A stretch of DNA of 64,000 bases, taken from positions 32,001-96,000 of IMG/VR virus record IMGVR_UViG_3300048598_000287; one strand, 5' to 3'. Origin of the DNA: a virus (lineage: Duplodnaviria; Caudoviricetes). Both the position numbers and the translations under genes were made by a program. The notes beneath the pieces were generated by a model, which worked only from the letters and a program-made list of their open reading frames with translations, made no database searches and was not told where the DNA came from. Below are positions 6,495 to 51,579 of this stretch, in pieces (the first letter of the stretch is position 1; the number at the start of each line of letters is the position of its first letter).

Positions 6495-6896
6495 TTAAGT
6501 CTCTTTGAGATATTTAGAATTAATCCGGTTGCCATTAGAATCGTATTCGGCACAATATACGTATCCAGTGGAATGTTTTCTACGAATAATATTTCCTTTA
6601 GAATCATACCAGTCTTCTGATCCATTTGATGCCTTATAATGAACAAGTCGGCCCTGCTCATCATATTCATACCATTCTTTTAATCCGTCTGAATACTTCT
6701 TACGAATCATACGTCCATTAGAATCGTACCACTCTTCATATCCATCCGAATCCTTAGTATGGATCAGTTTTCCATCAAAATACCATCGTTCGTATCCAGA
6801 ATTATCCTTATCCCGAATAAGTTTCCCCTGGTATTCGGAAATCTTCCCACGGATCATTGAGATAGCATTTAGGATCTTGCTTATGATATGATTCAT
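6495..6896 (-). CDS. WYD-repeat (YD/MORN-like) protein
   Basis: Repeats of WYDxxGxxIHxKxSDG. Confidence 0.8.
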   Translation of the reverse strand: MNHIISKILNAISMIRGKISEYQGKLIRDKDNSGYERWYFDGKLIHTKDSDGYEEWYDSNGRMIRKKYSDGLKEWYEYDEQGRLVHYKASNGSEDWYDSKGNIIRRKHSTGYVYCAEYDSNGNRINSKYLKET

Positions 6897-6900
6897 TTAA

Positions 6901-7863
6901 TTAACTTCTTGTATTTTTACCTTTACTATTGACATCATAAAAATATTCGGTCCCGTCTGACCATTTTTCATGAATACTATTCCCATTGGCATCATTCCAA
7001 ATTTCAGAGCCATCGTAAAATTTGGTGTAAATACGGTTTCCTTGGTCATCATAGTCATACCAATATTCATCTCCAACGGAATCCTTATAATGAATCAGGT
7101 TTCTCTTATCATTGTATTCATACCACTTTTCTAATCCAGAATAATCCTTACAATGAATAAGATTTCTATTGGAATCATACCTCCATTCATCGCCATTAGA
7201 ATCCTTAGCATGAATAAGTTTACCTTTATTATCGAACCAGCTTTCAGCTCCTGTACTATCTTTCTTATGAATTACGTTGCCCTTAGCATCATACCATCGT
7301 TCTACTCCGTTGGGCCACTTCTCATGAATTATATTCTCATCGGAATCATACCAAAATTCATTACCATAGGAATTATTCACGTGAGTACCATTGATCGTTC
7401 CATTGGAATCATATTCATACCACTTATCTGCCCCGGTAGAATATTTTCTGTGAATAATATGCCTATCGGAATCAAACCAATATTCATCACCGTCGGAACA
7501 TATAGTGTGAATAGTATGTCCCTCAGCATCATATTCATGCCAACTCTCTAAGCCATCTTGATCCTTCTCATGAATCACGTTATTTTTATCATCATACCAT
7601 TTTTCAATTCCACCTGGAAATTTTGTATGAATGATGGTTCCCTTTGTATCGAACCATTCTTCGAATACATCGGAGAACTTAGTGTGAATCTTCTTCCCAT
7701 CTGAGTCATACTCATGCCAACGGTCAACACCATCTGAATGCTTCATATAAATGGTATTACCATCTTTATCATACTCATACCATTCTTCGGAACCATCTGA
7801 CCACTTCGTATGAATATTGTTACCTTCGCCATCGGATTCGCATTGAGTTTTTGAAATTTGCAT
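6901..7863 (-). CDS. WYD-repeat (YD/MORN-like) protein
   Basis: Made almost entirely of ~21-23-aa WY(EY)DxxGxxIHxKxSxG repeats. Confidence 0.85.
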   Translation of the reverse strand: MQISKTQCESDGEGNNIHTKWSDGSEEWYEYDKDGNTIYMKHSDGVDRWHEYDSDGKKIHTKFSDVFEEWFDTKGTIIHTKFPGGIEKWYDDKNNVIHEKDQDGLESWHEYDAEGHTIHTICSDGDEYWFDSDRHIIHRKYSTGADKWYEYDSNGTINGTHVNNSYGNEFWYDSDENIIHEKWPNGVERWYDAKGNVIHKKDSTGAESWFDNKGKLIHAKDSNGDEWRYDSNRNLIHCKDYSGLEKWYEYNDKRNLIHYKDSVGDEYWYDYDDQGNRIYTKFYDGSEIWNDANGNSIHEKWSDGTEYFYDVNSKGKNTRS

Positions 7864-11269: not shown

Positions 11270-11995
11270 TTACTTGTTGGAAAGCTGCCATTCTACTAGG
11301 GATTTACCGTTGATATTTTTGTAGATATACTTGAATATACGGATATATCCGTCTTCGCTCTTTTCATAGATGCAATTCCCATTTGCATCATATTCATTCC
11401 ACCATTCTGATCCACGTGAATTTTTCTCATGAATAGTATTTCCTAGAGAATCACGGTCATACCATTTTTCGTATCCGTCGGCATCCTTATAGCGAATCGG
11501 CTTGCCGCTATCATCAAACCAATGTTCGGATCCGTTGGAATTCTTCGTATAGATCAGTTTTCCATTGGCATCACGTTCATACCAGCATTCGAATCCGTTC
11601 GACCACTTATCATGGATCCGATTTCCATGGCAATCATATTCGTGCCACCATTCGGATCCATCCGAACTCGTCTCATGAATTCTGTTTCCATTAGAATCAT
11701 ATGAATACCAACAATCGAAGGCTGGTACGAATTTAGTATGAATTAAGTTTCCTTTATCGTATTCGTACCACCTTGAGAATCCCACGGAATCCTTATCATG
11801 AATCAGGTTTCCCGTAGAATCATAGGAATACCACCGTTCATGTCCACTGGAGCAGGTAGCATGAATCTTATTACCATTGGAATCATATTCATTGTGAGTC
11901 CAGATATCGTAGCTATCACCGTTTAGGATAGCATTTCCTTTTACTATCGATACTTTAACTTCGGCTATCGTATCGCTGTTCTCGATACCGTTCAT
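11270..11995 (-). CDS. WYD-repeat protein
   Basis: Tandem WY(E/S)YDxxGNxIH repeats. Confidence 0.85.
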   Translation of the reverse strand: MNGIENSDTIAEVKVSIVKGNAILNGDSYDIWTHNEYDSNGNKIHATCSSGHERWYSYDSTGNLIHDKDSVGFSRWYEYDKGNLIHTKFVPAFDCWYSYDSNGNRIHETSSDGSEWWHEYDCHGNRIHDKWSNGFECWYERDANGKLIYTKNSNGSEHWFDDSGKPIRYKDADGYEKWYDRDSLGNTIHEKNSRGSEWWNEYDANGNCIYEKSEDGYIRIFKYIYKNINGKSLVEWQLSNK

Positions 11996-13508: not shown

Positions 13509-14831
13509 GTGAACTACCCTCACCCTAAAGGGAGTGGGCTTCTTTTCGTTTCAACGGATCAGCTATGGAAGTTCCCTGCAAGCAGGGGACGGACAGGAGA
13601 TTCTCGACGGAGGGGCGTTCCGCCCGCTCGGCTCTGTGTGACGAGCCGATCAATAGAATGTTCTTTGCGGCATGAATATCCCTGTCCTCAGTCATGCCGC
13701 AGTCACAGGCGAAGATGCGCTTGCTGGGCGGCATATTGAGGAGGGAGCCGCATGCCGTGCACAGCCGGGTCGTGGGTTCCCATTTTGAGAGTTTAAATGA
13801 TGCAAAGCCTTCTTTCTGGATGAGTTTCTGTTTGATTCTTCCGAGGCATGAATGCTGGACGGCGCGGCCATAGCCGCGGCGTCTGCATCTTTGCCAGGAA
13901 GCGATCTGTTCATCCTGGAAATAGACAAAATCATAATTGGCATAGATCCAGTGAATGATCTTGTTGGCCTTGTCATCCCGCACATTGGATATGTGCTGAT
14001 ATTCACGCCGCACGAGCCGGAGAAGATGATTCCGTCGCTTGGATTCCTTATCGTGCTTCAGTGCCAGATGGCGCTGGAGCCGTGTAAGTTTCTCGGTTTC
14101 TTGCTCGGATACATCGAACTTCGTCCCGTCGGACACGGTCACCGTGTCCTTTATGCCCATGTCAATCCCGCAGGATCTGCCCGTCTTGGGCAAATCAGCG
14201 ATTTTAGCAGTCAGGCAAAGCTTTATATGGAAGCCGTCAGGCTTCCTCAATAGGCAGCTGTCATGCAGCTGATATGATTCAAATTTATTGAGATGTTCCA
14301 GACCGTGAACTTTCAGATTAGGAAATCCCGGGATCGTCATCATTGATCCGCTCTTTATCGTCATTCCCTGATGCCGGATCGGAAGGCTGCTCACCTCGCG
14401 GCGGAATCTCAGCTTCCCTACTTTTCCGCCTTTAAGTTTCTTCTTGTTAAGATTCTTAACGTCTTCCTTAAGTTTCTTTATCAGGTTCTGATGGATTCCG
14501 GTGTTGAGCGTGATCTCACGCTCAACCCGATTGTGTTCACGATCAAAACACAATACCTTGCGGTGCTCATTGTATTTATAACCGAAGATATCACCTGTCG
14601 ATATGGCGTCGTTTATCGACCACTTGGCCTCGACGAAGGCATGAGAAAGACGACGCAAGACGGACTTATCCGTCTTGCGCGCATTTACCTTCAAATCTAT
14701 CTGCCTTATCGCTTCCATCATTTATATAATTTATATCCTTGACTTTAATATACATTTTTATTATACTGTTATCTATGGCGGAATTCATCTCCCCGGACTA
14801 AATTCCGGGAGTTTTCTTCCGCAAATCTCCG
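13509..14831 (-). mobile_element. Non-autonomous IS200/IS605-type element carrying only tnpB
   Basis: Right end GAAGCCCACTCCCTTTAGGGTGAGGGTAGTTCAC; left-end hairpin at 14777-14822; candidate TAM TTTAT at 14832-14836; no tnpA. Confidence 0.8.
13525..14721 (-). CDS. tnpB: TnpB RNA-guided endonuclease
   Basis: RuvC-I GIDMG, QDE at RuvC-II, Zn finger CTAC...CDCG, RuvC-III DRDIHAAKNIL. Confidence 0.9.
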   Translation of the reverse strand: MMEAIRQIDLKVNARKTDKSVLRRLSHAFVEAKWSINDAISTGDIFGYKYNEHRKVLCFDREHNRVEREITLNTGIHQNLIKKLKEDVKNLNKKKLKGGKVGKLRFRREVSSLPIRHQGMTIKSGSMMTIPGFPNLKVHGLEHLNKFESYQLHDSCLLRKPDGFHIKLCLTAKIADLPKTGRSCGIDMGIKDTVTVSDGTKFDVSEQETEKLTRLQRHLALKHDKESKRRNHLLRLVRREYQHISNVRDDKANKIIHWIYANYDFVYFQDEQIASWQRCRRRGYGRAVQHSCLGRIKQKLIQKEGFASFKLSKWEPTTRLCTACGSLLNMPPSKRIFACDCGMTEDRDIHAAKNILLIGSSHRAERAERPSVENLLSVPCLQGTSIADPLKRKEAHSL

Positions 14832-14858: not shown

Positions 14859-15056
14859 CCTTGATTTCCGCGTCGCGGCGCTGGAGGTCGGAGTAACATC
14901 ACACAATCTGAACTGGATATTCACCAAGATGGAAAGGCGTTAATAGAATACAACAGGTGTAACATCAGACAAACCGAATCTAATCTTCATCCATTCTTTT
15001 GTACGCATCGCACCGCATGCAGGTGTAACATCAGACAAACCGAATCTAATCTTCAT
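14859..15056 (-). repeat. CRISPR-like mini-array A
   Basis: 35-bp repeats at 15022-15056, 14956-14990 and 14890-14924 (period exactly 66) with unique 31-nt spacers. Confidence 0.85.
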
Positions 15057-15428
15057 CTGATTCTTCATAAATCGTTGAATATCTTCATATTGCAATGAAT
15101 ACTTATCATAAAAAATCTCCCATACACGAGAACAACTTACCAAGAAATGCTTATTTTTTCCGGTTAACTGAATGTCAAACATCCATTCATCATCTGAATT
15201 GCGAAGATCTATACGATGGGTGGGTAGTTTGCTTTCATCACCATATTCATCCAGGAACACCGTATTTGTGCATTGTCCAAGTAGTTCCAGGAACGTCTTA
15301 TCAAATTCTTCCTGAGTAACCTCAGGTTTCTCTAATTCTGCTTTAGAGAACTTGGTGAGCATCAGGGATTTCATCTCATCCGATTCATTATAGATCTTTC
15401 TTGCTTCTTCAATTGTTAATTCTGCCAT
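14940..15428 (-). CDS. Array-associated MAELT-family protein
   Basis: Family leader plus WMFDI/HFWV-type domain; reads in frame through two repeats (MKIRFGLSDVTP x2). Confidence 0.85.
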   Translation of the reverse strand: MAELTIEEARKIYNESDEMKSLMLTKFSKAELEKPEVTQEEFDKTFLELLGQCTNTVFLDEYGDESKLPTHRIDLRNSDDEWMFDIQLTGKNKHFLVSCSRVWEIFYDKYSLQYEDIQRFMKNQMKIRFGLSDVTPACGAMRTKEWMKIRFGLSDVTPVVFY

Positions 15429-15452: not shown

Positions 15453-15600
15453 TAATCCAATCCGAATCTAATCGTCACCCTAGAAAACGCTCATGATAAA
15501 TCAATACCTGGTGTAACATCATTCAATCCGAACCGGATATTCACTACATGCTCCGTAGTCGGAACGATGTAATATCATCCAATCCGAACACGGTGTTCAC
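15453..15600 (-). repeat. CRISPR-like mini-array B
   Basis: Repeats 15566-15600, 15510-15544 and partial 15453-15478; spacers 21 and 31 nt. Confidence 0.8.
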
Positions 15601-15972
15601 CTGATTCTTCATAAGTCGTTGAATCGCATTATCTTGCAATGAATACTTATCCTTGAAAATCTTCCATACCCTAAAATAACTTACCCAAAAATGCTTATTT
15701 TTTCCTGTGAAGAGGATGTCAAACATCCATTCATCATTTGGTTTTCTAAGTTCTCTGCGGTTAGTGGGAAGTTTGCTTTCATAACTATTTTCATCCAAGA
15801 ACACCGTCTTGGTGCATTGTCCAAGTAGTTCCAGGAACGTCTTGTCGAATTCTTCCTGTGTAACCGCATGCTTCTCAAGGTCTTCCTTAGTGAACTTAGT
15901 GAGCATCAGGGATTTCATCTCATCCGATGATGCGTAGATCTTTCTAGCTTCTTCGATTGTCAATCCGGGCAT
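15544..15972 (-). CDS. Array-associated MAELT-family protein
   Basis: Paralog; AAGGAG RBS. Confidence 0.85.
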   Translation of the reverse strand: MPGLTIEEARKIYASSDEMKSLMLTKFTKEDLEKHAVTQEEFDKTFLELLGQCTKTVFLDENSYESKLPTNRRELRKPNDEWMFDILFTGKNKHFWVSYFRVWKIFKDKYSLQDNAIQRLMKNQVNTVFGLDDITSFRLRSM

Positions 15973-16000: not shown

Positions 16001-16029
16001 AATATAGATATTTAATTGGTCATTGTCAA
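16001..16029 (-). promoter_or_regulatory. Sigma70-type promoter
   Basis: TTGACA-17 nt-TATATT. Confidence 0.75.
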
Positions 16030-16112
16030 CTACAAATGATACCAGAATTCGGATCAATTGGAATAATATGTATATCGGGTTTAATGGCCATTAAATTATT
16101 TATAGTCTCTTT

Positions 16113-16214
16113 GCTGTAACATCATCCAGCCCGAATCTAATCTTCACCATGTATCCGACAAATGTCATAATCCGTCTTGATTGTAACATCATCCAATCCG
16201 AACTGGATATTAAC
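16113..16214 (-). repeat. CRISPR-like mini-array C
   Basis: Repeats 16180-16214 and 16113-16147; 32-nt spacer. Confidence 0.75.
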
Positions 16215-16586
16215 CTGATTTTTCATAAGTCGTTGAATATCAATATCGTACATCGAATAGGTATCCACGAAAATCTTCCATACACGGTAATGACTTACCC
16301 AGAACCGCTTATTTTTCCCGGTGAACTTAATATCAATCATCCATTCGTTATTAGAATTTCTTAGTTCTATCGTGTTTGTGGGAAGATTGCTTTTTTCACC
16401 ATATTCATTCAGGAACGCAATCTTGGTGCATTGACCCAGTAATTTCAGGAACGTCTCGTCGAATTCTTCCTGAGTAACCGCATGCTTCTCAAGGTCTTCC
16501 TTAGTGAACTTGGTGAGCATCAGAGATTTCATCTCATCCGATGATGCATAGATCTTTCTTGCTTCTTCAATAGTCAATTCGGGCAT
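16137..16586 (-). CDS. Array-associated MAELT-family protein
   Basis: Start MPELT with GGAG RBS. Confidence 0.85.
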   Translation of the reverse strand: MPELTIEEARKIYASSDEMKSLMLTKFTKEDLEKHAVTQEEFDETFLKLLGQCTKIAFLNEYGEKSNLPTNTIELRNSNNEWMIDIKFTGKNKRFWVSHYRVWKIFVDTYSMYDIDIQRLMKNQVNIQFGLDDVTIKTDYDICRIHGED

Positions 16587-16626
16587 ATTACATCTCCGTT
16601 GATATCTTAAATATATTAGCCAAGGA

Positions 16627-17043
16627 TTAAACGGGTATTTTTCCATAACGGTATTTAATGAATTTCAAATCATTTTCATCAATATAGCCATCCTGGATGA
16701 GGTTGTTACCGATTGCCTGCTCATCATACCACTTTTCATATGTATCGGGCATATCCCTATTTTTTATATATTCGTCTAAAGTCTCATTATAGCCTTCATA
16801 TTTTTTCCATTCATCGTTGAAAACGAATCCTTTTGCATTTAATTCATGTTCTGAAAGAACGAATTCTTCACACAGGTCAGGTTTTATTATGCAAACCCAT
16901 TGCCACCTAGGTTCAGCATCGCAAGTATAGTTCAGCTGAGAAAGCAAATGCATAGAAGGGAAAATATATTTCGTTCCGGAAAACCGATATACGGGAGCAT
17001 CAAAATATGTGTCTAAAAGTTTACTTTTACATTGTGCTTTCAT
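16627..17043 (-). CDS. Hypothetical protein
   Basis: 138-aa ORF. Confidence 0.65.
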   Translation of the reverse strand: MKAQCKSKLLDTYFDAPVYRFSGTKYIFPSMHLLSQLNYTCDAEPRWQWVCIIKPDLCEEFVLSEHELNAKGFVFNDEWKKYEGYNETLDEYIKNRDMPDTYEKWYDEQAIGNNLIQDGYIDENDLKFIKYRYGKIPV

Positions 17044-17105
17044 AAATAGATACCTTCTGTTTCAATGTTTCCATAGCAGCATGCTAGGGTTTTAGTTAGC
17101 TTCAT

Positions 17106-17180
17106 CTAGATAGTTCTCGCGTATTCAATCGTCAACTCGGTCATGGTAGGCCTCCGTATAATATTTAATTATCCAATCAA
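17106..17180 (-). pseudogene. Relic of the MAELT-family leader and its RBS block
   Basis: GATTGGATAATTAAATATTATACGGAGGCCTACC followed by MTELTIEYARTI*. Confidence 0.7.
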
Positions 17181-17186
17181 ATCCTG

Positions 17187-17450
17187 TTATTCATCCTGGT
17201 ATTTCTTAGATGCATCACATGTTATTGTCGGATAGTTAGGAAACTCATAGAACTTCAGTGGTTTTATGTTTGGTGTGTCAAATGGGCCTCGCAATGCCCA
17301 GTGAATTCCGTCATTGTCGTTCGCCTGTTTCTTCAATTCTTCCAGCGAAAACAAATATTCAATGAGGGCCACCTTTTCCGCATTGCTTAGGGAATCTGAT
17401 GTCATGATTAGGGTCTTCAGTTTTTCTGAACTATTCATATTATCATTCAT
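17187..17450 (-). CDS. Hypothetical protein
   Basis: 87 aa, AAGGA RBS. Confidence 0.6.
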   Translation of the reverse strand: MNDNMNSSEKLKTLIMTSDSLSNAEKVALIEYLFSLEELKKQANDNDGIHWALRGPFDTPNIKPLKFYEFPNYPTITCDASKKYQDE

Positions 17451-17581
17451 TTAATTATCCTTTCCTGGAATATATTTCCAAGTTCAATCTGGTGATTGGT
17501 AATTCAATCTCTATAGGTAAACTATATTTTCTGCGATACCGTTACGATAGGAATTCACGGTACTGTCCGTTTCTGGGTGTT

Positions 17582-17878
17582 CTAATGTGGGAAATGACGT
17601 ATGTCAATATCAACCGATATAGATTTCGCAGATTCGTTAGTTACAATCAATGCATATTGTTCTCTACCGTTAATTATTGTAGATGTGTATTTTGTCACAC
17701 GCATCGACTTAGCAATGGACATGGTGTCAATATCTATTTCAGCATCGCCGGCTATTTTACGGGAATCAATGATATATGCAGAAAATTTTGAGCCCGATAA
17801 TACATTCACCGATGTCCATCCCGTGATAGAAATAGGCAAATTTACGGCGATCAATTTATTAGGACCTAGGATAGCCAT
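17582..17878 (-). CDS. Hypothetical protein
   Basis: 98 aa, GGAGG RBS. Confidence 0.6.
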   Translation of the reverse strand: MAILGPNKLIAVNLPISITGWTSVNVLSGSKFSAYIIDSRKIAGDAEIDIDTMSIAKSMRVTKYTSTIINGREQYALIVTNESAKSISVDIDIRHFPH

Positions 17879-17883
17879 TTAGC

Positions 17884-18306
17884 TCAGCCTCCGCCTTGTA
17901 CACAGTTCGCATACGGTTCGTTAAGTGGATGAATGGATAGCGTACCCCAGGCGTTTGGTTCACGACAAGTACGGGATTTAATCTGTGCCATAGCTTCTTC
18001 GGTAGTATGCGCTATGGCAAATGCCACGCCACGTGTATAAGCTGAGCAAAAATCTGTCCAGACAAATAACCGTAAGTTTTCGTTCATAATAATCTTAGGT
18101 ACTTCATCTGGAATAGTTGGCGCTGAGATAGTCGATCTAGACGATAATCCTTTGAAACCATACCATTTGTCGCGTTTCTGAACGGTTTCCGAATATATAT
18201 CAAGACATCCCTTTAGATATTCTGCCAGAACAAAATCAGGCGTATCCGATTCGTTTTCCTTACTGTACTTATTGATCAGCAATTCAAGCTCATTTTCAAA
18301 TTCCAT
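17884..18306 (-). CDS. Two-domain hypothetical protein
   Basis: ENESDTPDFVLAEYL domain fused to a homolog of 5725-5925. Confidence 0.7.
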   Translation of the reverse strand: MEFENELELLINKYSKENESDTPDFVLAEYLKGCLDIYSETVQKRDKWYGFKGLSSRSTISAPTIPDEVPKIIMNENLRLFVWTDFCSAYTRGVAFAIAHTTEEAMAQIKSRTCREPNAWGTLSIHPLNEPYANCVQGGG

Positions 18307-18333
18307 TATCGTCCTCTATGTAAAATATCAATT

Positions 18334-18531
18334 GATGTGACATCATCCAATCATAACCGGATATTCACTACATGCTCCGTAGTCGGAACGATGTAATATC
18401 ATCCAATCCGAACACGGTGTTCACCCACTGATTGATACATATCCTGATGGAGGAATGTGTTCACCCACTGATTGATACATATCCTGATGGAGGAATGATG
18501 TAATATCATCCAATCCGAACACGGTATTCAC
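18334..18531 (-). repeat. CRISPR-like mini-array D
   Basis: Repeats 18497-18531, 18390-18424 and 18334-18368; first spacer tandemly duplicated (18417-18456 = 18457-18496); second spacer identical to 15545-15565. Confidence 0.85.
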
Positions 18532-18904
18532 CTGATTCTTCATAAGTCGTTGAATCGCATCATCTTGTAATGAATATGTATTCGCAAAAATCTTCCATAT
18601 CCTAAAATAACTTACCCAGAAATGTTTATTTTTTTCCTGTGAAGAGGATGTCAAACATCCATTCATCATTTGGGTTTCTAAGTTCTATACGATTGGTGGG
18701 AAGCTTGCTTTTATAACCATGTTCATTCAGAAACACCGTATTTGTGCATTGTCCAAGTAGTTCCAGGAACGTCTTATCAAATTCTTCCTGAGTAACCTCA
18801 TGTTTCTCAAGTTCACTTTTAGAGAACTTGGTGAGCATCAGGGATTTCATCTCATCCGATGATGTGTAAATCTTTCTTGCTTCTTCAATAGAAATTTCTG
18901 CCAT
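18421..18904 (-). pseudogene. Frameshifted MAELT-family gene
   Basis: A7 tract at 18629-18635 vs A6 in the paralog at 15698-15703 splits the ORF. Confidence 0.75.
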
Positions 18905-18950
18905 AGTAGACATCCTTATAGTTAATCACCAATACGAACATTGCAATCAG

Positions 18951-19095
18951 CCTAGAAAGCGAGCATGATAACTACCTGATGTAACATCAGTCAATCCGAA
19001 CAGAGGGTTCACCTCCCGTTCCATTATGCACGTCCGTGAAACGGGTCCTACAGGCCCCACATTGTAACATCATCCAATCCGAATCTAATCTTCAC
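18951..19095 (-). repeat. CRISPR-like mini-array E
   Basis: Repeats 19061-19095 and 18978-19012; 48-nt spacer; distal spacer related to 15479-15509. Confidence 0.75.
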
Positions 19096-19467
19096 CTGAT
19101 TAGTCATAAGTCGTTGAATATCAATATAGTTCAATGAATAGGTATCCGCTAAAATATTCCATACCCGGAAATTATTTAACCAGAAATGCTTATGTTTTCC
19201 TGTGAAGCAAATGTCAAACATCCAATCGTTATTTGAATTTTTGAGTACTATGCGGTTTGTGGGAAGCTTGCTTTCAACCCAATCTTCATCCAAGAACACC
19301 GTCTTGGTGCATTGTCCAAGTAGTTCCAGGAACGTCTTATCAAATTCTTCCTGAGTAACCTCATGCTTCTCTAATTCTGCTTTAGAGAACTTGGTGAGCA
19401 TCAGGGATTTCATCTCATCCGATTCATTATAGATCTTTCTTGCTTCTTCAATTGTTAATTCTGCCAT
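19048..19467 (-). CDS. Array-associated MAELT-family protein
   Basis: Paralog; AAGGAGG RBS. Confidence 0.85.
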   Translation of the reverse strand: MAELTIEEARKIYNESDEMKSLMLTKFSKAELEKHEVTQEEFDKTFLELLGQCTKTVFLDEDWVESKLPTNRIVLKNSNNDWMFDICFTGKHKHFWLNNFRVWNILADTYSLNYIDIQRLMTNQVKIRFGLDDVTMWGL

Positions 19468-19497
19468 AGTAGGCCTCCTTATATAAGTTAATTAGAT

Positions 19498-19717
19498 AAT
19501 CCGAACTGGATATTCATCTGATTCCAAAGGATCTGAACGGCGGCACGGATGTAATATCATCCAATCCGAACTGGTTATTCATCTATGATATCAATGGGAA
19601 CGTTATTCATGCAAGGTGTAACATCATTCAATCCGAATCTAATCTTCACCCAAGTTTCTGAGCAACCCGTATGATTTTCCTTGGTGTAACATCATTCAAT
19701 CCGAATCTAATCTTCAC
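19498..19717 (-). repeat. CRISPR-like mini-array F
   Basis: Repeats 19683-19717, 19615-19649, 19548-19582 and partial 19498-19517; spacers 33, 32 and 30 nt. Confidence 0.85.
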
Positions 19718-20089
19718 CTGATTCTTCATAAGTTTAGTAATATCATTATCTTGCAATGAATACTTATCCTTGAAAATCTTCCATACCCTTTCAGAACTTA
19801 CCCAGAAATGTGGGTAGTTTCCTATGAAGAGGATGTCAAACATCCATTCATCATTTGGGTTTCTAAGTTCTATACGATTGGTGGGAAGATTGCTTTTATA
19901 ACCATGTTCATTCAGGAACACCGTCTTGGTACATTGCCCAAGAAATTCCAGGAAGATCTTATCGAATTCTTCTTGAGTAACCTCATGCGGTTCAAGTTCA
20001 TCTTTCGTGAACTTAGTGAGCATCAGGAATTTCATCTCATCCGATGATGCGTAGATCTTTCTTGCTTCTTCAATTGTCAGGTCTGGCAT
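19646..20089 (-). CDS. Array-associated MAELT-family protein
   Basis: Start MPDLT with AAGGAG RBS. Confidence 0.85.
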   Translation of the reverse strand: MPDLTIEEARKIYASSDEMKFLMLTKFTKDELEPHEVTQEEFDKIFLEFLGQCTKTVFLNEHGYKSNLPTNRIELRNPNDEWMFDILFIGNYPHFWVSSERVWKIFKDKYSLQDNDITKLMKNQVKIRFGLNDVTPRKIIRVAQKLG

Positions 20090-20117: not shown

Positions 20118-20146
20118 AATATACATTTTTTACACCTCATTGGCAA
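20118..20146 (-). promoter_or_regulatory. Sigma70-type promoter
   Basis: TTGCCA-17 nt-TATATT. Confidence 0.7.
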
Positions 20147-20487: not shown

Positions 20488-21081
20488 TTAATACCACCAT
20501 TCATGTCCATCTGACCTTTTATTATGAATAATGCTCCCATCGGCATCGTACCAATCTTCATGCCCATAGGAATCCTTATAATGAATGCATTTTCCATCGG
20601 AATCGTAATCCCACCAGTGTTCATATCCGTCAGTAAGTTTCTTATGAATGCATTTTCCATCGGAATCATAGTAATACCATATTTCTGATCCGTCGGTATC
20701 CTTATAGCGAATCGGCTTCCCGCTCTCATCAAACCAATGTTCGGATCCGTTGGAATTTTTCGTATAGATCAGTTTTCCATTGGCATCGTACCACCATTCG
20801 AATCCATCTGAGGCCGTATAATGAATAAGATGCCGATTTCCATAGGAATCATATTCATACCATTTTTCAGATCCGTTGGGATACTTCGTATGAATCATGT
20901 TCCCATCGGCATCGTACCACAATTCATTACCCATTAAATCCTTCAGATGACTCGATTTATCAGAGTCCGATGAATCATCGGCTTCAAGGATTTTCTTGGA
21001 GAATTTGGTGAGCATCAGGGATTTCAGCGCATCAGAGTTGTGATAGATATTTCTTGCTTCTTTAATAGTCAATTCCGCCAT
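20488..21081 (-). CDS. MAELT leader fused to WYD repeats
   Basis: MAELTIKEARNIY...TKFSKKILE followed by WYD repeats. Confidence 0.85.
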   Translation of the reverse strand: MAELTIKEARNIYHNSDALKSLMLTKFSKKILEADDSSDSDKSSHLKDLMGNELWYDADGNMIHTKYPNGSEKWYEYDSYGNRHLIHYTASDGFEWWYDANGKLIYTKNSNGSEHWFDESGKPIRYKDTDGSEIWYYYDSDGKCIHKKLTDGYEHWWDYDSDGKCIHYKDSYGHEDWYDADGSIIHNKRSDGHEWWY

Positions 21082-21181
21082 GGTAGGCCTCCTTAAATAA
21101 TGATAAATCATAATTGATATTTAACTATCTTCCATTATGATATGTTGTAGATTCAATTAAAATATATGAAATTCTCCTTTG

Positions 21182-21925
21182 TCACTCAACTTTTTCTGCA
21201 TGACCAGAATACTCAACGAACTGATTGAATAGCTTTCTGGCAAGGCATCCTAATTCACCGCATTCATCACCATCAAGAAGCCCGAGATCTATAGCGTCCA
21301 TCTGATCCTTGAAATCATCGTAGTCTGCATATCCGCGCTTCAAGATGTCGGTAAGGATAGATAGCACGGCAGCCTTGCACGCATGCTGGTCCAGATATCC
21401 CCGCTCTTTATATTTGAATGTCCTGATTAGGCTGGAAAGAGGGTATTCGGAATGAATATATTCACTTCTTCTGGTCAAGAGATATTTCATATAATTATCA
21501 GTGAACTTAACATCTGATATATAATGTAATATTCCAGGTTCCCTATGCCTGACTTCCACACCTACCTGAACATGTGAAAAATCAAAGGTATTGATTAGTT
21601 GGTCAAGCGTAGGCTGGCGGTAAGAACAGAACTGCACCGGATAAGGGAACGTTTTCATGCGGACCGTGATTGCATTCTTCGTAGTGCTCAATACATCTAC
21701 TTCGGATATGTTATTCATCCGAAGGCGAAAATCTTCTCCGAATTCGTCCGAATCTGAGCCAGGATATACGTCGATATCATGCGGAGTATCTACGTTGCAT
21801 GAATTACCGGCGATGCGTACAGGATGATCAATCCCAATAGCATTGAACAACGCAGAAGGAATACGATACATCATTCTGCTCCTGATTTCATTAATAACTA
21901 GGTCATTCATAAATCTATAATACAT
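21182..21925 (-). CDS. Pol-beta-superfamily nucleotidyltransferase-like protein
   Basis: IAGNS...DIDVY and TFDF motifs. Confidence 0.65.
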   Translation of the reverse strand: MYYRFMNDLVINEIRSRMMYRIPSALFNAIGIDHPVRIAGNSCNVDTPHDIDVYPGSDSDEFGEDFRLRMNNISEVDVLSTTKNAITVRMKTFPYPVQFCSYRQPTLDQLINTFDFSHVQVGVEVRHREPGILHYISDVKFTDNYMKYLLTRRSEYIHSEYPLSSLIRTFKYKERGYLDQHACKAAVLSILTDILKRGYADYDDFKDQMDAIDLGLLDGDECGELGCLARKLFNQFVEYSGHAEKVE

Positions 21926-22066
21926 AATGCTGTCCTTTGCTTAAAATATGAATATAATCAGTTTTCCACGCTAAATATAGCATATTATCAACACATTGTA
22001 AATCAATTTCAGAAATATTGATAAAATCATATTGAATTTTCATATATATTTTCTATATTTAACGGT

Positions 22067-22783
22067 ATGAAAACTATTAGATTCAATACATTTGAAACAA
22101 ATTCCAGCTCAACACATGCGCTTGCCATATGCAAGAAACCCCGCACGGGCGAAGAATTCACCGATCCGGACGAGTACGGAATTCTATGGATACGGCTTGA
22201 CAAATATTTCACCTCAACCCATCAGATATGTTATAATGAGGGGTATATCGACACCGGGGAAACATGTAGCTATGATGTATCCACCCAAATAAAATATCTT
22301 GTGACTCAGGCAGTATCATCGGCGATTAATAAATGCTGTAACAATAAAGGAAATGATTATGATAAGGCATACATCCAGATGCAACGGAATCTTTCCATTC
22401 TGAGACGTAAAATAATAGCTCCTGTATATTCCGAGCTGAATATGGATCTCGTTAAAAGTATAACCCCATATTATCTATTGGACGGCAAGCGGGTGATAAT
22501 ATCCGCATCCAGCATGCCTAAGCTATATGGCATGGGAATAGGGATTGATCCCGATGACATGTATAGCGATGATTTCGCGAGTGCCATTCGCACACAGGTA
22601 GAGGACTATTCTAATTTACATTGGAAACGCAAAACCACCCTTGAAGAAGCGATTGGCATATCGGGCGAAATAGATCGTCAATATGGAAAAAACTATGATA
22701 AGAGAACTATAGCTGAACTGACATTCAAGCTATGGCGCCTATCACTGACACACTATAGCGTGCAATATTTCTATCATACATGA
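22067..22783 (+). CDS. FETNSSS-motif protein
   Basis: N-terminal IRFNTFETNSSSTH motif. Confidence 0.7.
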   Translation: MKTIRFNTFETNSSSTHALAICKKPRTGEEFTDPDEYGILWIRLDKYFTSTHQICYNEGYIDTGETCSYDVSTQIKYLVTQAVSSAINKCCNNKGNDYDKAYIQMQRNLSILRRKIIAPVYSELNMDLVKSITPYYLLDGKRVIISASSMPKLYGMGIGIDPDDMYSDDFASAIRTQVEDYSNLHWKRKTTLEEAIGISGEIDRQYGKNYDKRTIAELTFKLWRLSLTHYSVQYFYHT

Positions 22784-23008
22784 AATGCATTATCCATTTA
22801 ATTATTATGCGAACCAGTATTTTGTATGATATATACCATAAGAAACACCAGCGACTTTCGTATGGTGAGGTGAATCATGTTGTGTAAAAATGTATATTAC
22901 CAATGGTAGAGTTAAGTATCAAAAGGAACACCGCACGCCGATGTCCTTCGCGTAAGTTGGTGGTTAATTTGCCGGATTATCTAATTAATTTATATAAGGA
23001 GGCCTGAC

Positions 23009-23443
23009 ATGGCTGAATTGACAATTGAAGAAGCCCGAAAGATCTACGCAACAACGGATGATATGAAATCCCTGATGCTTACTAAGTTCTCTAAAAGTGA
23101 ACTTGAGAAACATGAGGTTACACAGGAAGAATTCGATAAGACCTTCCTGAGATTACTTGGGCAATGCACCAAGACTGTGTTCCTGGATGAAGCGGGTGAT
23201 GAAAGCCCGCTTCCCACTAACCGTATCGAACTCAGAAATTCAGATAACGAATGGATGTTTGACATCCAGTTCACTGGTAAAAATAAGCATTTCTGGGTAC
23301 ATTATTCTCGGGTATGGTGGATTTTCAAGGATAATGATTCATTGCAATATGAAGATATTGTACGACTTATGAAGAATCAGATGAACTCACGGTTCGGATT
23401 GGCTGATGTTAAACCCCTAATTAAGGAAATCATATTTTTTTAA
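23009..23443 (+). CDS. Array-associated MAELT-family protein
   Basis: Paralog; AAGGAGG RBS. Confidence 0.85.
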   Translation: MAELTIEEARKIYATTDDMKSLMLTKFSKSELEKHEVTQEEFDKTFLRLLGQCTKTVFLDEAGDESPLPTNRIELRNSDNEWMFDIQFTGKNKHFWVHYSRVWWIFKDNDSLQYEDIVRLMKNQMNSRFGLADVKPLIKEIIFF

Positions 23444-23510
23444 CACCCGGTTCGGATTGGGTGATGTTCAATCCATAACGGGATGAATAACATGGTTGGA
23501 TTGGATTATT
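23381..23510 (+). repeat. CRISPR-like mini-array G (degenerate)
   Basis: Repeats at 23381-23415, ~23440-23474 and degenerate 23483-23510. Confidence 0.7.
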
Positions 23511-23532
23511 AACTAATATAAGGAGGCCTGAC

Positions 23533-23961
23533 ATGGCTGAATTGACAATTGAAGAAGCTAGGAAGATCTACGCATCATCGGATGAGATGAAATCGCTGAT
23601 GCTCACCAAGTTCTCTAAAGCCGAATTAGAGAAACACAACCTTACACAGGAAGAATTTGATAAGATCTTCCTGGAATTGCTTGGCCAATGTATTAAGACC
23701 GTGTTCCTGGATAAACACGGTCATGAAAATAAGATTCCTAATAACCGGGTAAGATTAATAGATGCCACTGATAATTGGCTGTTTGATATTCAATTCACAG
23801 GAAAAGATAAGCATTTCTGGGTAAGTAATTCCCGGATATGGAATTGTTTAGCGGATACATATTCATTGAACTATAGTGATATCCAACGACTTATGAAAAA
23901 TCAGATGAACACCCGGTTCGGAATGGGTGATGTTACACCCTTCATTTTTTCACATACGTAG
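23533..23961 (+). CDS. Array-associated MAELT-family protein
   Basis: Paralog. Confidence 0.85.
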   Translation: MAELTIEEARKIYASSDEMKSLMLTKFSKAELEKHNLTQEEFDKIFLELLGQCIKTVFLDKHGHENKIPNNRVRLIDATDNWLFDIQFTGKDKHFWVSNSRIWNCLADTYSLNYSDIQRLMKNQMNTRFGMGDVTPFIFSHT

Positions 23962-24031
23962 CGGAACACGTTGAACACTGGGTTAGGATTAAACCATAAC
24001 GGGATGAATAACATGGTTGGATTGGATTATT
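23905..24031 (+). repeat. CRISPR-like mini-array H (degenerate)
   Basis: Repeat 23905-23939, 31-nt spacer, truncated repeat from 23971 (period 66), terminal block shared with arrays G and J. Confidence 0.7.
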
Positions 24032-24053
24032 AAATAATATAAGGAGGCCTACT

Positions 24054-24482
24054 ATGGCTGAATTGACAATTGAAGAAGCCAGGAAGATCTATGCAACAAC
24101 GGATGATATGAAATCCCTGATGCTCACCAAATTCACTAAGGAAGCCCTTGAGAAGCATGAAGTTACTCAGGAAGAATTCGATAAGATCTTCCTGGAATTG
24201 CTTGGCCAATGCTCCAAGACGGCGTTTCTGAATGAAGTGGGTGATGAAAGCCAGCTTCCCAATAACCGTATAGAACTCAGAAATTCAGATAACGAATGGA
24301 TGTTTGACATCCAGTTCACTGGTAAAAATAAGCATTTCTGGGTACATTATTCTCGTGTATGGAAGATTTTCATGAATACTTATTCGTTGGAAGATGTTGA
24401 TATTAAACTACTTATGAAGAATAAGATACATATTAGGTTCGGATTGGATGATGTTACCCCTTGTAGTTATTGGAAATGTTGA
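24054..24482 (+). CDS. Array-associated MAELT-family protein
   Basis: Paralog. Confidence 0.85.
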   Translation: MAELTIEEARKIYATTDDMKSLMLTKFTKEALEKHEVTQEEFDKIFLELLGQCSKTAFLNEVGDESQLPNNRIELRNSDNEWMFDIQFTGKNKHFWVHYSRVWKIFMNTYSLEDVDIKLLMKNKIHIRFGLDDVTPCSYWKC

Positions 24483-24633
24483 TCTGCGAAGATACATATT
24501 AGGTTCGGATTGGATGATGTTACCCCAGAGACGGCTATGCTGACGCGGCAGTAGAAGATACATATTAGGTTCGGATTGGATGATGTTACACCCTGCTACA
24601 ATTCGTATTTCTACAGGGTGGGATTGAATTATT
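24423..24633 (+). repeat. CRISPR-like mini-array I (cleanest copy)
   Basis: AAGATACATATTAGGTTCGGATTGGATGATGTTAC(C/A)CC at 24423, 24489 and 24555 (period 66) with unrelated spacers. Confidence 0.9.
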
Positions 24634-24655
24634 AAATTATATAAGGAGGCCTACC

Positions 24656-26209
24656 ATGGCTGAATTGACGATTGAAGAAGCAAGAAAGATCTACGCATCA
24701 TCGGATGATATGAAATCCCTGATGCTCACCAAATTCACTAAGGAAGACCTTGAAGAGGATTATACATCGTCCTCTTATGATAACCAGAATCACGGGCATG
24801 ATTCCCAGGGTAATGATTTTTGGTGCGATATCAATGGGAACGTAATTCATAAGAAAGCTCCAAATGGATTCGAAGCATGGTTCAATACAGATGGAAAAGT
24901 GATTCATAAGAAGCATTCTGACGGGTTTGAGGAATGGGTTGACTATGATTCTTATGGAAGAACTAATCATGTGAACGATTCCGATGGGTCAGAACGCTGG
25001 TACGAATACAATGCTAATGGGACAATATCACACGCTAAGTTTTCTGATGGGGAGGAATGGTGGTGCAATATCAATGGAAATAAGAGTCATTCCAAGTGGT
25101 CCGACGGATCCGAATCGTGGTACGATGCCAATGGAAATGACATTCATGGAAAAAATTCCGATGGATCGGAATGCTGGCATGATTTTGATAGCAATAAAAA
25201 ACTGATTCATAAGAAGTATTCCAATGGATTGGAAGAGTGGTATGATGCCACGGGGAATATGATCCGGTTGAAAGATTCCCTCGGATATGAAATGCGGTAT
25301 GAATATGATGCCAATGGCCACCTCATGCGCGAGAAGGATTCCTTAGGATGGGAAAAGTGGTGTGAATATGATGCCAACGGGCATCTGATTCACTCAAAGG
25401 ATTCAAATGGATTCGAACGGATGCATGAATATGCTACCGATGGGCACCGCATTCATGAGAAGGATTCGGACGGGCGCGAAAAATGGTATGATGCCAATGG
25501 AAAAATCATTCATTCTAAGTCTTCCGACGGAGTAGAAAAGTGCGAATCATGGTTCGATACCAATGGAAAACTGATTCACTTGAAATGTTCCGACGGTTTC
25601 GAATATTGGTATGATGCCGATGGGGAACTGATCCATTATAAGGATTCCGACGGAGATGAATATTGGTATGATGCCATAGGAACCCTTATGCATAAGAAGA
25701 TTTCCGATGGATCAGAAGAATGGTATGAATATAATGCTAATGGAAGGCTAATTTATGCAAATAATTCCGATGGATTTGAATCTTGGTATGAATATGGAGC
25801 CAATGGGCGAATGATTCATAATAAGACTTACGATGGATCAGAAGAATGGTATGCTACCGATGGGCACCGCATTCATGAGAAGGATTCGGACGGTTTCGAA
25901 TATTGGTATGATGCCAATGGGAATATCATTCATGAAAAGGATTCCGATGGATCAGAAGGTTGGCGGGATTTTGATAACAATAAAAAATTGATTCATAAGA
26001 AGTATTCCGACGGATTAGAACACTGGTATGATGCCAATGGGAACGTAATTCATAAGAAAAATCCAAATGAATTAGAATATTGGTGGAAATATGATGCCGA
26101 TGGGAAATTGAGTAATGAAATATGTTCTGATGGGTCAACCCGATGGTATTCTTATGATGCCCATGGGAATATGATTCATATGAAGATTTCCAATAGAACA
26201 TCTATTTGA
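24656..26209 (+). CDS. MAELT leader fused to a long WYD-repeat domain
   Basis: 517 aa, about 20 repeats; internal DNA duplication at 25431/25851. Confidence 0.9.
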   Translation: MAELTIEEARKIYASSDDMKSLMLTKFTKEDLEEDYTSSSYDNQNHGHDSQGNDFWCDINGNVIHKKAPNGFEAWFNTDGKVIHKKHSDGFEEWVDYDSYGRTNHVNDSDGSERWYEYNANGTISHAKFSDGEEWWCNINGNKSHSKWSDGSESWYDANGNDIHGKNSDGSECWHDFDSNKKLIHKKYSNGLEEWYDATGNMIRLKDSLGYEMRYEYDANGHLMREKDSLGWEKWCEYDANGHLIHSKDSNGFERMHEYATDGHRIHEKDSDGREKWYDANGKIIHSKSSDGVEKCESWFDTNGKLIHLKCSDGFEYWYDADGELIHYKDSDGDEYWYDAIGTLMHKKISDGSEEWYEYNANGRLIYANNSDGFESWYEYGANGRMIHNKTYDGSEEWYATDGHRIHEKDSDGFEYWYDANGNIIHEKDSDGSEGWRDFDNNKKLIHKKYSDGLEHWYDANGNVIHKKNPNELEYWWKYDADGKLSNEICSDGSTRWYSYDAHGNMIHMKISNRTSI

Positions 26210-26230
26210 ATGCTCGCCATATAAGATAAC

Positions 26231-26271
26231 TGCCTATGGATGGGTTCATTAAGTAAACCCATCCATAGGCA
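26231..26271 (+). terminator. Stem-loop, probable terminator
   Basis: TGCCTATGGATGGGTT...AACCCATCCATAGGCA. Confidence 0.6.
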
Positions 26272-26302
26272 TTAATTTAAATGAATATGATAGAAGGTAA
26301 CA

Positions 26303-35656: not shown

Positions 35657-35724
35657 ACATGACCTCTAGTTAACGTGAAATATATGAAATATATCCGCTT
35701 TTGGCAATACCAATCGGTCGGCAT

Positions 35725-40092: not shown

Positions 40093-40127
40093 AAAAAAGA
40101 GACCCGGATATCCGGGTCTCTTTTTTT
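40093..40127. terminator. Bidirectional intrinsic terminator
   Basis: AAAAAAGAGACCCGGATATCCGGGTCTCTTTTTTT between convergent genes. Confidence 0.9.
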
Positions 40128-48441: not shown

Positions 48442-48924
48442 TCATATTTGTAGCATTTTATGAACGATATTGCAATCAGCGGCACATACAATATGGACAT
48501 GCTTGGAGTCAAATCCATACTTTGCTTCGGCGAAAAGGCAAAGCCGTCGAAGTACAGCATCAACGTCCATACCAGTTCTATGAATGAGGGCATCACATGC
48601 TAATCCAGATATGGTAAAATGCCTAGAGTCCCCATATTCCTGAATGTCGAACAGCAATTTACCGCTGATGGTACACAGCAACATACGAGACGAGTTATTA
48701 TCTATACTCGATCCAACAGGGTCAATATACTTCTTTTCAACGCAATTATTAAATAGATTCCTTAGCACATAATCAAAATCTTCATATGTAACTGTATCAA
48801 CATCAACGGCGGTTACTCGATTCTTTTCAAGGTCATCATCAGAAAAAGATGCCGACAGCGCATAGGCTTCTGGATGTATGGACTTATACATCAATATCGC
48901 TTCATCTTTGGTAAATTCAATCAT
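48442..48924 (-). CDS. Divergent MAELT-family homolog without an array
   Basis: MIEFTKDEA, F.DDDLEK, VTYEDFD, LLFDIQ, HF and YGF align with the family. Confidence 0.65.
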   Translation of the reverse strand: MIEFTKDEAILMYKSIHPEAYALSASFSDDDLEKNRVTAVDVDTVTYEDFDYVLRNLFNNCVEKKYIDPVGSSIDNNSSRMLLCTISGKLLFDIQEYGDSRHFTISGLACDALIHRTGMDVDAVLRRLCLFAEAKYGFDSKHVHIVCAADCNIVHKMLQI

Positions 48925-49968: not shown

Positions 49969-50313
49969 TCAATATCCTTTACATTTCTTCGGTATATAAG
50001 AACTAATGGATTTGAATGTATATTGAAAATTATGGGCGACGTCATCAGCATAAGCTATGCATGCGGCCACATTTTTTGGCGATCTTTCTTTGAGTATGTT
50101 AGCATTTAATGTATTATATCTAACAAGGGTGGTTTCTAACGTGGCATATCTAACGCAATATGCATCATATATAGAGCAACCAATAAAAAGGAGGATTAGC
50201 ATTATCACACTGTCGATTATGCACGTTCCCTCACATATGCCAAATATTATGAGTAGCAGAACAGCGGATGAACCCAGAATGGTAACGATAAGCAATAATA
50301 TATTAATGGACAT
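49969..50313 (-). CDS. Membrane protein
   Basis: Two N-terminal hydrophobic helices; AGGAGG RBS. Confidence 0.65.
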   Translation of the reverse strand: MSINILLLIVTILGSSAVLLLIIFGICEGTCIIDSVIMLILLFIGCSIYDAYCVRYATLETTLVRYNTLNANILKERSPKNVAACIAYADDVAHNFQYTFKSISSYIPKKCKGY

Positions 50314-50635
50314 ATGCTGCCTCCTTTTTATGCAACTGATTTATTTTCTTTTTCTCTAATTTTTGCAGTTTCTCATACTTTCTCAACTGCACTACACTCT
50401 CAGAGAAATCTCGGAACAGCTCGGCATTTTTGATGAGATTTGTATACGTGACTTTAGGCAATTTGGCCTTACTCTCAATAAGTACCTTCGACAAATGAGT
50501 TATGCAAGAGCTTCTTATATCGATGATGCGCTGCGATTTACTAATAGAATCCCGCAGATTCTCCAATATAGAAGGGGGTTTCTTTAACGATGATACGCAA
50601 ATCTTTCTTGCTTCTTCAATCGTCAATTCAGCCAT
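50303..50635 (-). CDS. Partial MAELT leader fused to an unrelated basic helical domain
   Basis: MAELTIEEARKI followed by non-family sequence. Confidence 0.6.
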   Translation of the reverse strand: MAELTIEEARKICVSSLKKPPSILENLRDSISKSQRIIDIRSSCITHLSKVLIESKAKLPKVTYTNLIKNAELFRDFSESVVQLRKYEKLQKLEKKKINQLHKKEAAYVH

Positions 50636-50657: not shown

Positions 50658-50913
50658 AATAATTCAATCATATTATTCATACCGTTATAGCGGTAACATC
50701 ATCCAATCCTAACGTGGTGTTCACCGAGCAGTCGACCAGCTCCACGCTGCAACATCATCCACTCCGAATCTAATCGTTGCCCCAGTTTAGAATAGTACTA
50801 CGACATCCGTTTGGTGTAACATCATTCAATCCGAACTGGATATTCATCATCGGGAAATCCGGCTTAAGTCCGGAGTTTGGTGTAACATCATTCAATCCGA
50901 ACTGGATATTCAT
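50658..50913 (-). repeat. CRISPR-like mini-array J
   Basis: Repeats 50879-50913, 50813-50847, 50746-50780 and 50690-50724 plus a degenerate terminal block; spacers 31, 32 and 21 nt. Confidence 0.85.
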
Positions 50914-51279
50914 CTGATTTTTCATAAGTCGTTTAATATCCTCATCTTCCAATGAATCCGTATCCTTGAAAATCTTCCATACACGGTAATAACTTACCCA
51001 GAAACGCTTATTTTTTCCGGTGAACTGAAGGTCAAACAGCCATTCATTATTTGAATTTCGAAGTTCGATTCTGTTAGTGGGAAGCCGGCTTTCATTCCCC
51101 TTTTCATCAAGGAACCTCTTCTTGGTGCATTGCCCAAGTAGTTCCAGGAACGTCTTGTCGAATTCTTCCTGAGTAACACCTTCTAGTTCACTTTTAGAGA
51201 ACTTGGTAAGCATCAAAGCTTTAAGGGCATCCGATTTTTTATAGATCGTTCTTGCTTCTTCAACAGTCAGCTCTGCCAT
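50770..51279 (-). CDS. Array-associated MAELT-family protein
   Basis: Reads through two repeats (MNIQFGLNDVTPN x2). Confidence 0.85.
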   Translation of the reverse strand: MAELTVEEARTIYKKSDALKALMLTKFSKSELEGVTQEEFDKTFLELLGQCTKKRFLDEKGNESRLPTNRIELRNSNNEWLFDLQFTGKNKRFWVSYYRVWKIFKDTDSLEDEDIKRLMKNQMNIQFGLNDVTPNSGLKPDFPMMNIQFGLNDVTPNGCRSTILNWGND

Positions 51280-51307: not shown

Positions 51308-51336
51308 AATATACAAATTTCATTGGCTATTGGCAA
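51308..51336 (-). promoter_or_regulatory. Sigma70-type promoter
   Basis: TTGCCA-17 nt-TATATT. Confidence 0.7.
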
Positions 51337-51339
51337 CTA

Positions 51340-51579
51340 CTAGTACATCCGCCACTCTGGCCAGCCGGAATACTTATCATACATCCGGTTTCCATCGGCA
51401 TCGTACCAAAACTCATCACCATCGGAATCTTTCGCGTGACTCAGGTTATCACCATCCGGTTCAATTGATTCATTTGGAAACGTGGTGCACATCATGAATT
51501 TCATCTCCGTCGATATTTTGTAGAGTTTTCTTGCTTCTCCAATGTATTCATTTGATATTAATCTCATCAGCATAATCAA
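51340..51579 (-). CDS. Degenerate MAELT leader plus one WYD repeat
   Basis: IGEARKLYKISTEMKFMM...KDSDGDEFWYDADGN. Confidence 0.55.
   Translation of the reverse strand: MIMLMRLISNEYIGEARKLYKISTEMKFMMCTTFPNESIEPDGDNLSHAKDSDGDEFWYDADGNRMYDKYSGWPEWRMY

Follow-up and report, generated by a model that had tools for sequence, protein, structure and literature searches.

Why do proteins of otherwise unrelated sequence, encoded by one phage, begin with the same 33 residues? This question is raised by a 64,000-nucleotide stretch of DNA (the window), representing bases 32001-96000 of a 277,197-bp IMG/VR virus record with a CheckV completeness of 66%, in which a segment we term the MAELT leader precedes both a ~105-aa domain (the A domain), found in genes that end in small repeat arrays, and YD-repeat proteins (also called WYD; RHS_repeat, TIGR01643). 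Judged by its sequence, the uncultivated phage is a giant and a distant relative of T4, and its family-B DNA polymerase (PolB, window 40127-43099) shares ~27% identity with the polymerases of T4-like phages such as Vibrio phage nt-1 and Klebsiella phage Marfa. A T4-type prohead protease (Peptidase_S77, 54-56 bits) is encoded at genome 267640-268362 (L035:9641-10363), and a megablast of 22900-26300 against isolate phages gave no match. The reading that we prefer, and to which we would give about an even chance, is that the leader is an autonomous three-helix module, spread by recombination and kept by selection, which acts as a docking handle for a common partner and is not a capsid-targeting propeptide.

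Copies of the leader were sought over the whole 277-kb record using a BLOSUM six-frame scan together with a hidden Markov model (HMM) built from the leader copies. This gave 14 full copies with the 33-residue consensus MAELTIEEARKIY..SDEMKSLMLTKF.K..LE, 13 in the window and one at genome 16875+, with HMM E-values of 1e-15 to 1e-23, while the next-best open reading frame (ORF) in the record reached only E = 2.5. Ten copies precede an A domain and four precede YD repeats, which bears out the original prediction that the leader is shared by these two cargoes, and in addition to these two remnants are truncated, one copy has decayed and one A paralog has diverged far from the rest. The ten A-gene copies all have the same residue at 18 of the 33 positions, and the 13 window copies at 16. 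An upstream ribosome-binding site (RBS) block had also been proposed to accompany most leaders and does so: GGAGGCCT occurs 14 times in the genome (~3.6 occurrences expected by chance, our own estimate from base composition) and ten of these lie directly before a leader or leader relic, with the A genes 15972, 16586 and 20089 having GGAGAT in its place and starting with MP rather than MA. Three further details of that prediction needed adjustment, as the supposed leader-bearing YD gene at 51340 does contain YD repeats (two) but its leader is degenerate (14 of 33 residues identical), the ORF at 50303 does start with part of the leader before unrelated sequence but only with its first 12-16 codons, and a relic suggested near 17106 exists but lies at 17109-17144. 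Neither the leader nor the A domain matched any Pfam, PHROG or NCBIfam family at E <= 0.01, PDB sequence profiles gave no match to the leader or to the A family, and an ESM Atlas search using the leader gave no usable match. The genes and remnants are as follows, in window coordinates unless stated.

14940-15428, minus strand: A gene, leader 15330-15428; its 3' end enters a repeat array of 66-nt period
15544-15972, minus strand: A gene, leader 15874-15972, MP variant; early promoter at 16001-16029
16137-16586, minus strand: A gene, leader 16488-16586, MP variant
17109-17185, minus strand: relic with a partial repeat, the RBS block (GGAGGCCT) at 17145-17185 and 12 leader codons at 17109-17144 (MTELTIEYARTI), then TAG
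18421-18904 (also listed to 18913), minus strand: A pseudogene with an intact leader, 18806-18904; frame broken by TAA
19048-19467, minus strand: A gene, leader 19369-19467
19646-20089, minus strand: A gene, leader 19991-20089, MP variant; early promoter at 20118-20146
20488-21081, minus strand: YD-repeat protein of 197 aa, leader 20983-21081, with the acidic Ser-rich linker LEADDSSDSDKSSH
23009-23443, plus strand: A gene, leader 23009-23107
23533-23961, plus strand: A gene, leader 23533-23631, modelled using AlphaFold2
24054-24482, plus strand: A gene, leader 24054-24152, followed by a three-repeat array at 24418-24595
24656-26209, plus strand: YD-repeat protein of 517 aa, leader 24656-24754; homologous to A genes between -36 and about +100
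48442-48924, minus strand: far-diverged A paralog with a co-diverged leader (MIEFTKDEAILMYKS...)
50303-50635, minus strand: hybrid ORF in which the RBS block and first 12-16 leader codons are followed by unrelated sequence; directly behind the array of gene 50770-51279
50770-51279, minus strand: A gene, leader 51181-51279, junction LEGV; early promoter at 51308-51336
51340-51573, minus strand: decayed leader and two YD repeats
52378-53181, minus strand: YD-repeat protein of 267 aa, leader 53083-53181, junction LDGV; GGTGT in common with gene 50770-51279
Genome 16875, plus strand, outside the window: YD protein of 385 aa with leader

The far-diverged A paralog has retained a leader that diverged along with it, and the A family has therefore had the leader for a long time. 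Nei-Gojobori proportions of synonymous (pS) and nonsynonymous (pN) differences, taken over nine intact A paralogs, were 0.43 and 0.11 in the leader, and 0.385 and 0.17 in the rest of the gene, respectively. Pairwise leader pN/pS over all 14 copies was 0.28 between A genes, 0.33 between A and YD genes and 0.52 between YD genes. Conserved blocks cover codons 1-13 and 17-27 (pN 0.05-0.08), the tail is semi-variable, and codons 14-16, at the turn from helix 1 to helix 2, are hypervariable (pN 0.51 versus pS 0.25); this may represent diversifying selection in what is a very small sample. The YD genes at 20488-21081 and genome 16875 have a common linker after the leader (LEADDSS.SDKSSH) and therefore stem from one fusion, and their leaders differ at 13 residues. 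Of these differences, twelve are at the 15 positions where A genes vary as well, and one is at the 18 where they do not (Fisher p = 1.4e-5). Substitutions in the YD lineage thus follow the variability of the A genes, which indicates that the same constraints act on the leader after it has joined a different cargo, and that it is under purifying selection as a peptide, independently of that cargo. Neutral evolution of the leader, an outcome raised with the original prediction, is rejected both by a pN/pS of ~0.3, reflecting purifying selection, and by this substitution pattern. Uniformity through constant conversion or a nucleotide-level element was likewise discarded, because pS is as high in the leader as in the rest of the gene.

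The leader can also be parted from each of its cargoes. More than 20 YD-repeat genes are present (genome 8197-28026; window 6495-6896, 6901-7863 and 11270-11995), which carry at least three alternative heads, of the form MK.IAKRKKTVSHKVRIV.G... or MKN(I/V)I..IR.AI..., or none, and the three in the window had correctly been predicted to be without the leader. In the metagenome protein P0125 the front is that of gene 20488-21081 and the tail is like that of gene 11270-11995, and YD genes therefore recombine freely. A search for related loci from a single A protein found nothing, and the same search from an A alignment gave two loci. Three forms of the A domain are encoded on the related contig IMGVR_UViG_3300037067_007569 (L001). 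One follows the leader and has two co-diverged versions, one follows a 40-residue head of another kind, and one is headless, aligning to residues 37-136 at 44% identity. In L001 the leader is also found on an unrelated 77-residue protein, whose gene is set among MORN-type repeat genes. The MORN-type cluster (L001:8970-9287 and 16381-20074; YYESGAL..E.PYKNGK..GI.K) surrounds the leader genes there and parallels the YD-repeat clusters seen here.

When a profile built from the 13 window leaders was run against 1.84 billion representative proteins, 34 matched. The matches comprise A and YD proteins, a number of other short cargoes and, at E ~1e-4, a third family (also called C; ~160 aa, motif AMAQLSQLM). 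The top match, P0121, is a repeat protein aligned only to leader positions 1-14 and was treated as a chance resemblance. Comparison of the A family with the third family using hhalign gave a probability of 97.7% (E = 2e-12) over the leader columns alone. The third family, in which the sequence reads FATEKQAKSALAMAQLSQLM ... FLAFKT..RD.FL, is present on 31 IMG/VR contigs (L004-L034), and its N-terminal head comes in at least four alternative forms. The module itself is strictly N-terminal throughout the three cargo families, beginning 0-8 residues after the start Met. P0146 and P0154 have apparently internal copies, with a Met 6-7 residues before the module, so that their starts have probably been mis-called, and these were not used as evidence against an N-terminal signal. 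Every combination of leader presence or absence with A, YD, C or other cargo was seen, and the leader is optional for each cargo.

AlphaFold2 predicted three short helices for the module in both an A protein and the third family. In the A-protein model (gene 23533-23961) these span residues 6-14, 16-23 and 29-34, with a mean predicted local distance difference test score (pLDDT) of 69.7, and in the third-family model 10-16, 21-30 and 33-37, with a mean pLDDT of 90.8 and 88-90 over the module. The hydrophobic residues that are invariant in the leader (I12, Y13, L22, M23, L24, F27 and L32; I6 and M19 are nearly so) would form the core of the module, which leaves the conserved charged and polar residues E8, R10, D17, K20, T25, K26, K29 and E33 for the surface. 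Searches with both models using Foldseek (PDB, BFVD) and VIA-align wide returned nothing above noise, with best Z values of 4.2 and 3.9.

The way in which the leader has moved is recorded in the DNA around it. Pairwise alignments of A and YD genes show homology extending from a point 13-36 nt upstream of the ATG as far as +98 to +105, and in tandem units this upstream block, before the RBS of the next gene, itself begins with a truncated array repeat. Three YD junctions were seen and all are different (LE|ADDSS, LE|EDYTSS and LDGV|NGN), the last having GGTGT in common with the neighbouring A gene 50770-51279. The A genes with leaders ending at 15428 and 19467 are identical from -12 to ~+160 but for two mismatches, with the remainder ~80% identical, and this ~170-nt stretch is a clear conversion tract. 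The truncated copies, that is the stop-terminated relic 17109-17185 and the hybrid ORF 50303-50635, break at codons 12-16, and intact leader genes all retain the full 33 residues. The RBS block with the 99 nt of coding sequence is thus a homology patch for the exchange of 5' ends between genes. The suggestion that the leader is a recombining expression cassette therefore holds for the recombination, as seen in the conversion tract and the junctions, but not for a cassette of DNA alone, as the leader is conserved as protein.

At the level of promoter motifs, leader genes belong to the early class. An early sigma70-like promoter, TTG(A/C)CA-N17-TATA(T/A)T embedded in TTTAATTATCTATATT, is present 18 times in the genome versus 0.85 times in shuffled sequence, and has the long form CCCTTGACA-N9-TTTAATTATCTATATTAT, with each copy 20-40 nt before an RBS and ATG. 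It stands directly before four of the 14 leader genes (15972, 20089, 51279 and genome 16875), and a related -10 block lies 110 nt before gene 23009. A late-type motif, TATAAACT(A), which resembles the T4 late promoter TATAAATA, has 45 copies in the genome, often 30-45 nt upstream of large structural genes (up to 1828 aa), and none of these is within 150 nt upstream of any leader gene or in the window between 14 and 27 kb. The early promoters in the window, and examples of the late-type motif, are:

16001-16029, minus strand: early promoter
20118-20146, minus strand: early promoter
35679-35707, minus strand: early promoter
51308-51336, minus strand: early promoter
56453-56481, plus strand: early promoter
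31875, minus strand: late-type motif
33669, minus strand: late-type motif
35725, plus strand: late-type motif
55436, minus strand: late-type motif
56298, minus strand: late-type motif
61780, plus strand: late-type motif

The same phage has a second leader, with the consensus M..Y.IF.ES...G(L/I)....A....(L/I)(Y/F)E, on at least six late-region proteins. Like the MAELT leader it is an N-terminal segment common to unrelated proteins; unlike it, at least one of its genes has a late motif directly upstream, four of the proteins carry (L/I)-(Y/F/L)-E, and one of the genes is directly upstream of that for the Peptidase_S77 prohead protease. The two leaders have no similarity when compared using hhalign (probability 0.1%), and PHROGs and Pfam searches of the head-module genes recognised the protease alone. 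The genes with the second leader are:

Genome 108611: second-leader gene
Genome 130388: second-leader gene
Genome 131008: second-leader gene
Genome 140196: second-leader gene
Genome 201719: second-leader gene
Genome 266617 (L035:8617-9304): second-leader gene

The second leader is a better candidate for a capsid tag than the MAELT leader, which is therefore probably something else. One phage can thus run two separate shared-leader systems, early and late, and N-terminal leaders of megaphages should therefore not all be taken for capsid tags.

A constraint that acts on the protein and does not depend on the cargo is, in our view, best fitted by a docking handle. The small A proteins, from genes that anchor the mini-arrays, would be the native carriers of the leader, and YD-repeat genes, like a few other reading frames in early, fast-changing regions, would have received it by grafting. 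There it would bring either the A domain or a YD-repeat binding scaffold to one common partner early in infection, and this partner may be other leader-bearing proteins, thereby linking A and YD proteins as the original prediction had proposed, or a shared host or phage target. The leader would stay on the protein and not be removed in the manner of a capsid-targeting propeptide. Several observations weigh against this interpretation. Fold and sequence searches yielded no functional analogue of the leader, and confidence in the leader is only moderate in the A-protein model (pLDDT ~60). The tree of leader DNA was not resolved, and a single origin of the YD fusions was not rejected, with the approximately unbiased (AU) test keeping a single YD-leader clade (p = 0.35); a claim of independent YD fusions from phylogeny was dropped for this reason, and repeated grafting is argued from the junction differences only. 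Finally, some of the synonymous sites in codons 17-27 vary unusually little, with rare CTC and CTG codons among them, and an extra nucleotide-level role of this block may exist.

One option in the original prediction was a targeting tag for capsid packaging, cleaved after Glu, and a capsid-targeting sequence (CTS) of the T4 kind would bind the prohead core, load A and YD proteins into the head and be cut by the T4-type prohead protease. There are real similarities with the CTS of IPI-III and Alt (PMC9026906, PMC3012670), in that a conserved N-terminal segment is found on unrelated proteins of a phage distantly related to T4, which encodes a gp21-type protease of the Peptidase_S77 family, and T4 internal proteins are themselves diverse cargoes sharing only a CTS (PMC3012670, PMC9026906). 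The leader also has I-x-E-A at residues 6-9 in all of the 14 copies but one, which has V at 6, and a near-invariant L-E closes it. However, the T4 CTS is 10-19 residues long and ends in L/I-x-E, the gp21 site (PMC9026906), whereas our leader is two to three times this length at 33 residues and meets the cargo at x-L-E, where P3 is E, D, A or M in all but one of the 14 copies. Cutting within I-x-E-A, at E8, would leave most of the leader on the protein, including its best-conserved block at 17-27, and members of the wider module family often have Q or K in place of E8. Leader genes are also preceded by early promoters, never by the late motif TATAAACT, a context that is early and not late at the motif level, and a different, unrelated leader is carried by the late-region proteins described above, one of them encoded beside the protease. 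As far as sequence and motifs can indicate, then, the leader fails four defining features of a CTS, and a role as a capsid tag seems highly unlikely to us.

A second alternative is that the leader has no function of its own in YD proteins and is conserved only for the A family, being carried as a passenger of the homology patch and strong translation start formed by the RBS and first codons. The common segment does have a strong Shine-Dalgarno sequence (AAGGAGG) and a truncated array repeat upstream, a conversion tract and truncated hybrids exist, and pN/pS in YD-YD pairs (0.52) exceeds that in A-A pairs (0.28). The closest precedent is provided by promoter-early stem-loop (PeSL) cassettes, which bring about shuffling in the hyperplastic regions of T4-type phages (PMC2839356, PMC4122927), and here too a short conserved segment at gene starts serves as an exchange point between unrelated sequences, with leader genes located in paralog-rich early regions of a T4-type genome. 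PeSL cassettes, however, consist of a non-coding early promoter and stem-loop, whereas the segment here is an RBS with 33 codons (99 nt) that is selected at the amino-acid level, and an early promoter is directly attached in only four of 14 leader copies; the leader is thus a coding analogue of PeSL shuffling patches. Against a passenger stand the substitutions of the YD lineage, which avoid A-invariant positions (p = 1.4e-5), a leader pS equal to that of the rest of the gene and hence conservation at the amino-acid level, conservation of the module as protein across families whose DNA can no longer be aligned, and the retention of all 33 residues in every intact gene, with cuts at codons 12-16 confined to the relic and the hybrid ORF. 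We therefore consider this explanation unlikely. An N-terminal regulatory tag, for timed degradation or chaperone recognition, could give early proteins a common lifetime or folding route, and would suit a segment that is strictly N-terminal in three cargo families, optional for each cargo and present on early-class genes. However, it has no supporting homology and, to our knowledge, a folded module of three helices, rich in conserved charged residues, does not resemble known short degrons, which makes such a tag very improbable.

In polymorphic toxins, N-termini such as LXG, PAAR and Rhs are trafficking or adaptor domains, and the toxin tips move on a fixed handle. The leader proteins resemble these in having a conserved N-terminal handle with exchangeable downstream parts, and in the involvement of YD repeats, but they are small (140-517 aa), phage-encoded, and it is the handle itself that moves between cargo families. 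The leader-bearing YD proteins have YD repeats only; they lack an RHS core (92 bits versus a cut-off of 2000), and no toxin domain could be recognised in them. As a module the leader is real and unannotated, and it is widespread in phage metagenomes. It is a mini-domain constrained in its own right, which giant phages attach to small proteins of at least three unrelated families or take away from them, and it offers a way to find the targets of abundant "hypothetical" early proteins.

The A genes each end in a ~38-nt repeat encoding (M)N/K-I-R-F-G-L-D-D-V-T-P, which recurs one to three times with a period of 66-68 nt, and several metagenome homologs read through the array in frame (66 nt = 22 codons). 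The repeat arrays in the window are:

14888-15057: repeat array
15508-15601: repeat array
16111-16215: repeat array
18333-18532: repeat array
18976-19096: repeat array
19493-19718: repeat array
23373-23468: repeat array
23897-23942: repeat array
24418-24595: repeat array

The spacer at 19584-19610 matches the leader-bearing YD gene at 24824-24850 (family D10), and YD genes would thus have supplied at least one array spacer. This has a bearing on a further possibility, in which the leader would be the assembly handle of a Cas-less, gene-anchored array system, with A proteins binding their own 3'-encoded repeats and the leader tethering YD proteins into the same complex. If true this would be a new kind of phage ribonucleoprotein machine, although we regard it as a long shot, and the connection of the leader to the mini-arrays is suggestive only. 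The linking of A proteins to YD-repeat proteins would matter if the mini-arrays prove to be a functional system. A TnpB-like ORF (OrfB_IS605 and a Cas12f1-like TNB domain) is also present in the window at 13525-14721 on the minus strand, ~170 nt downstream of the last repeat of array 14888-15057 and on the same strand.

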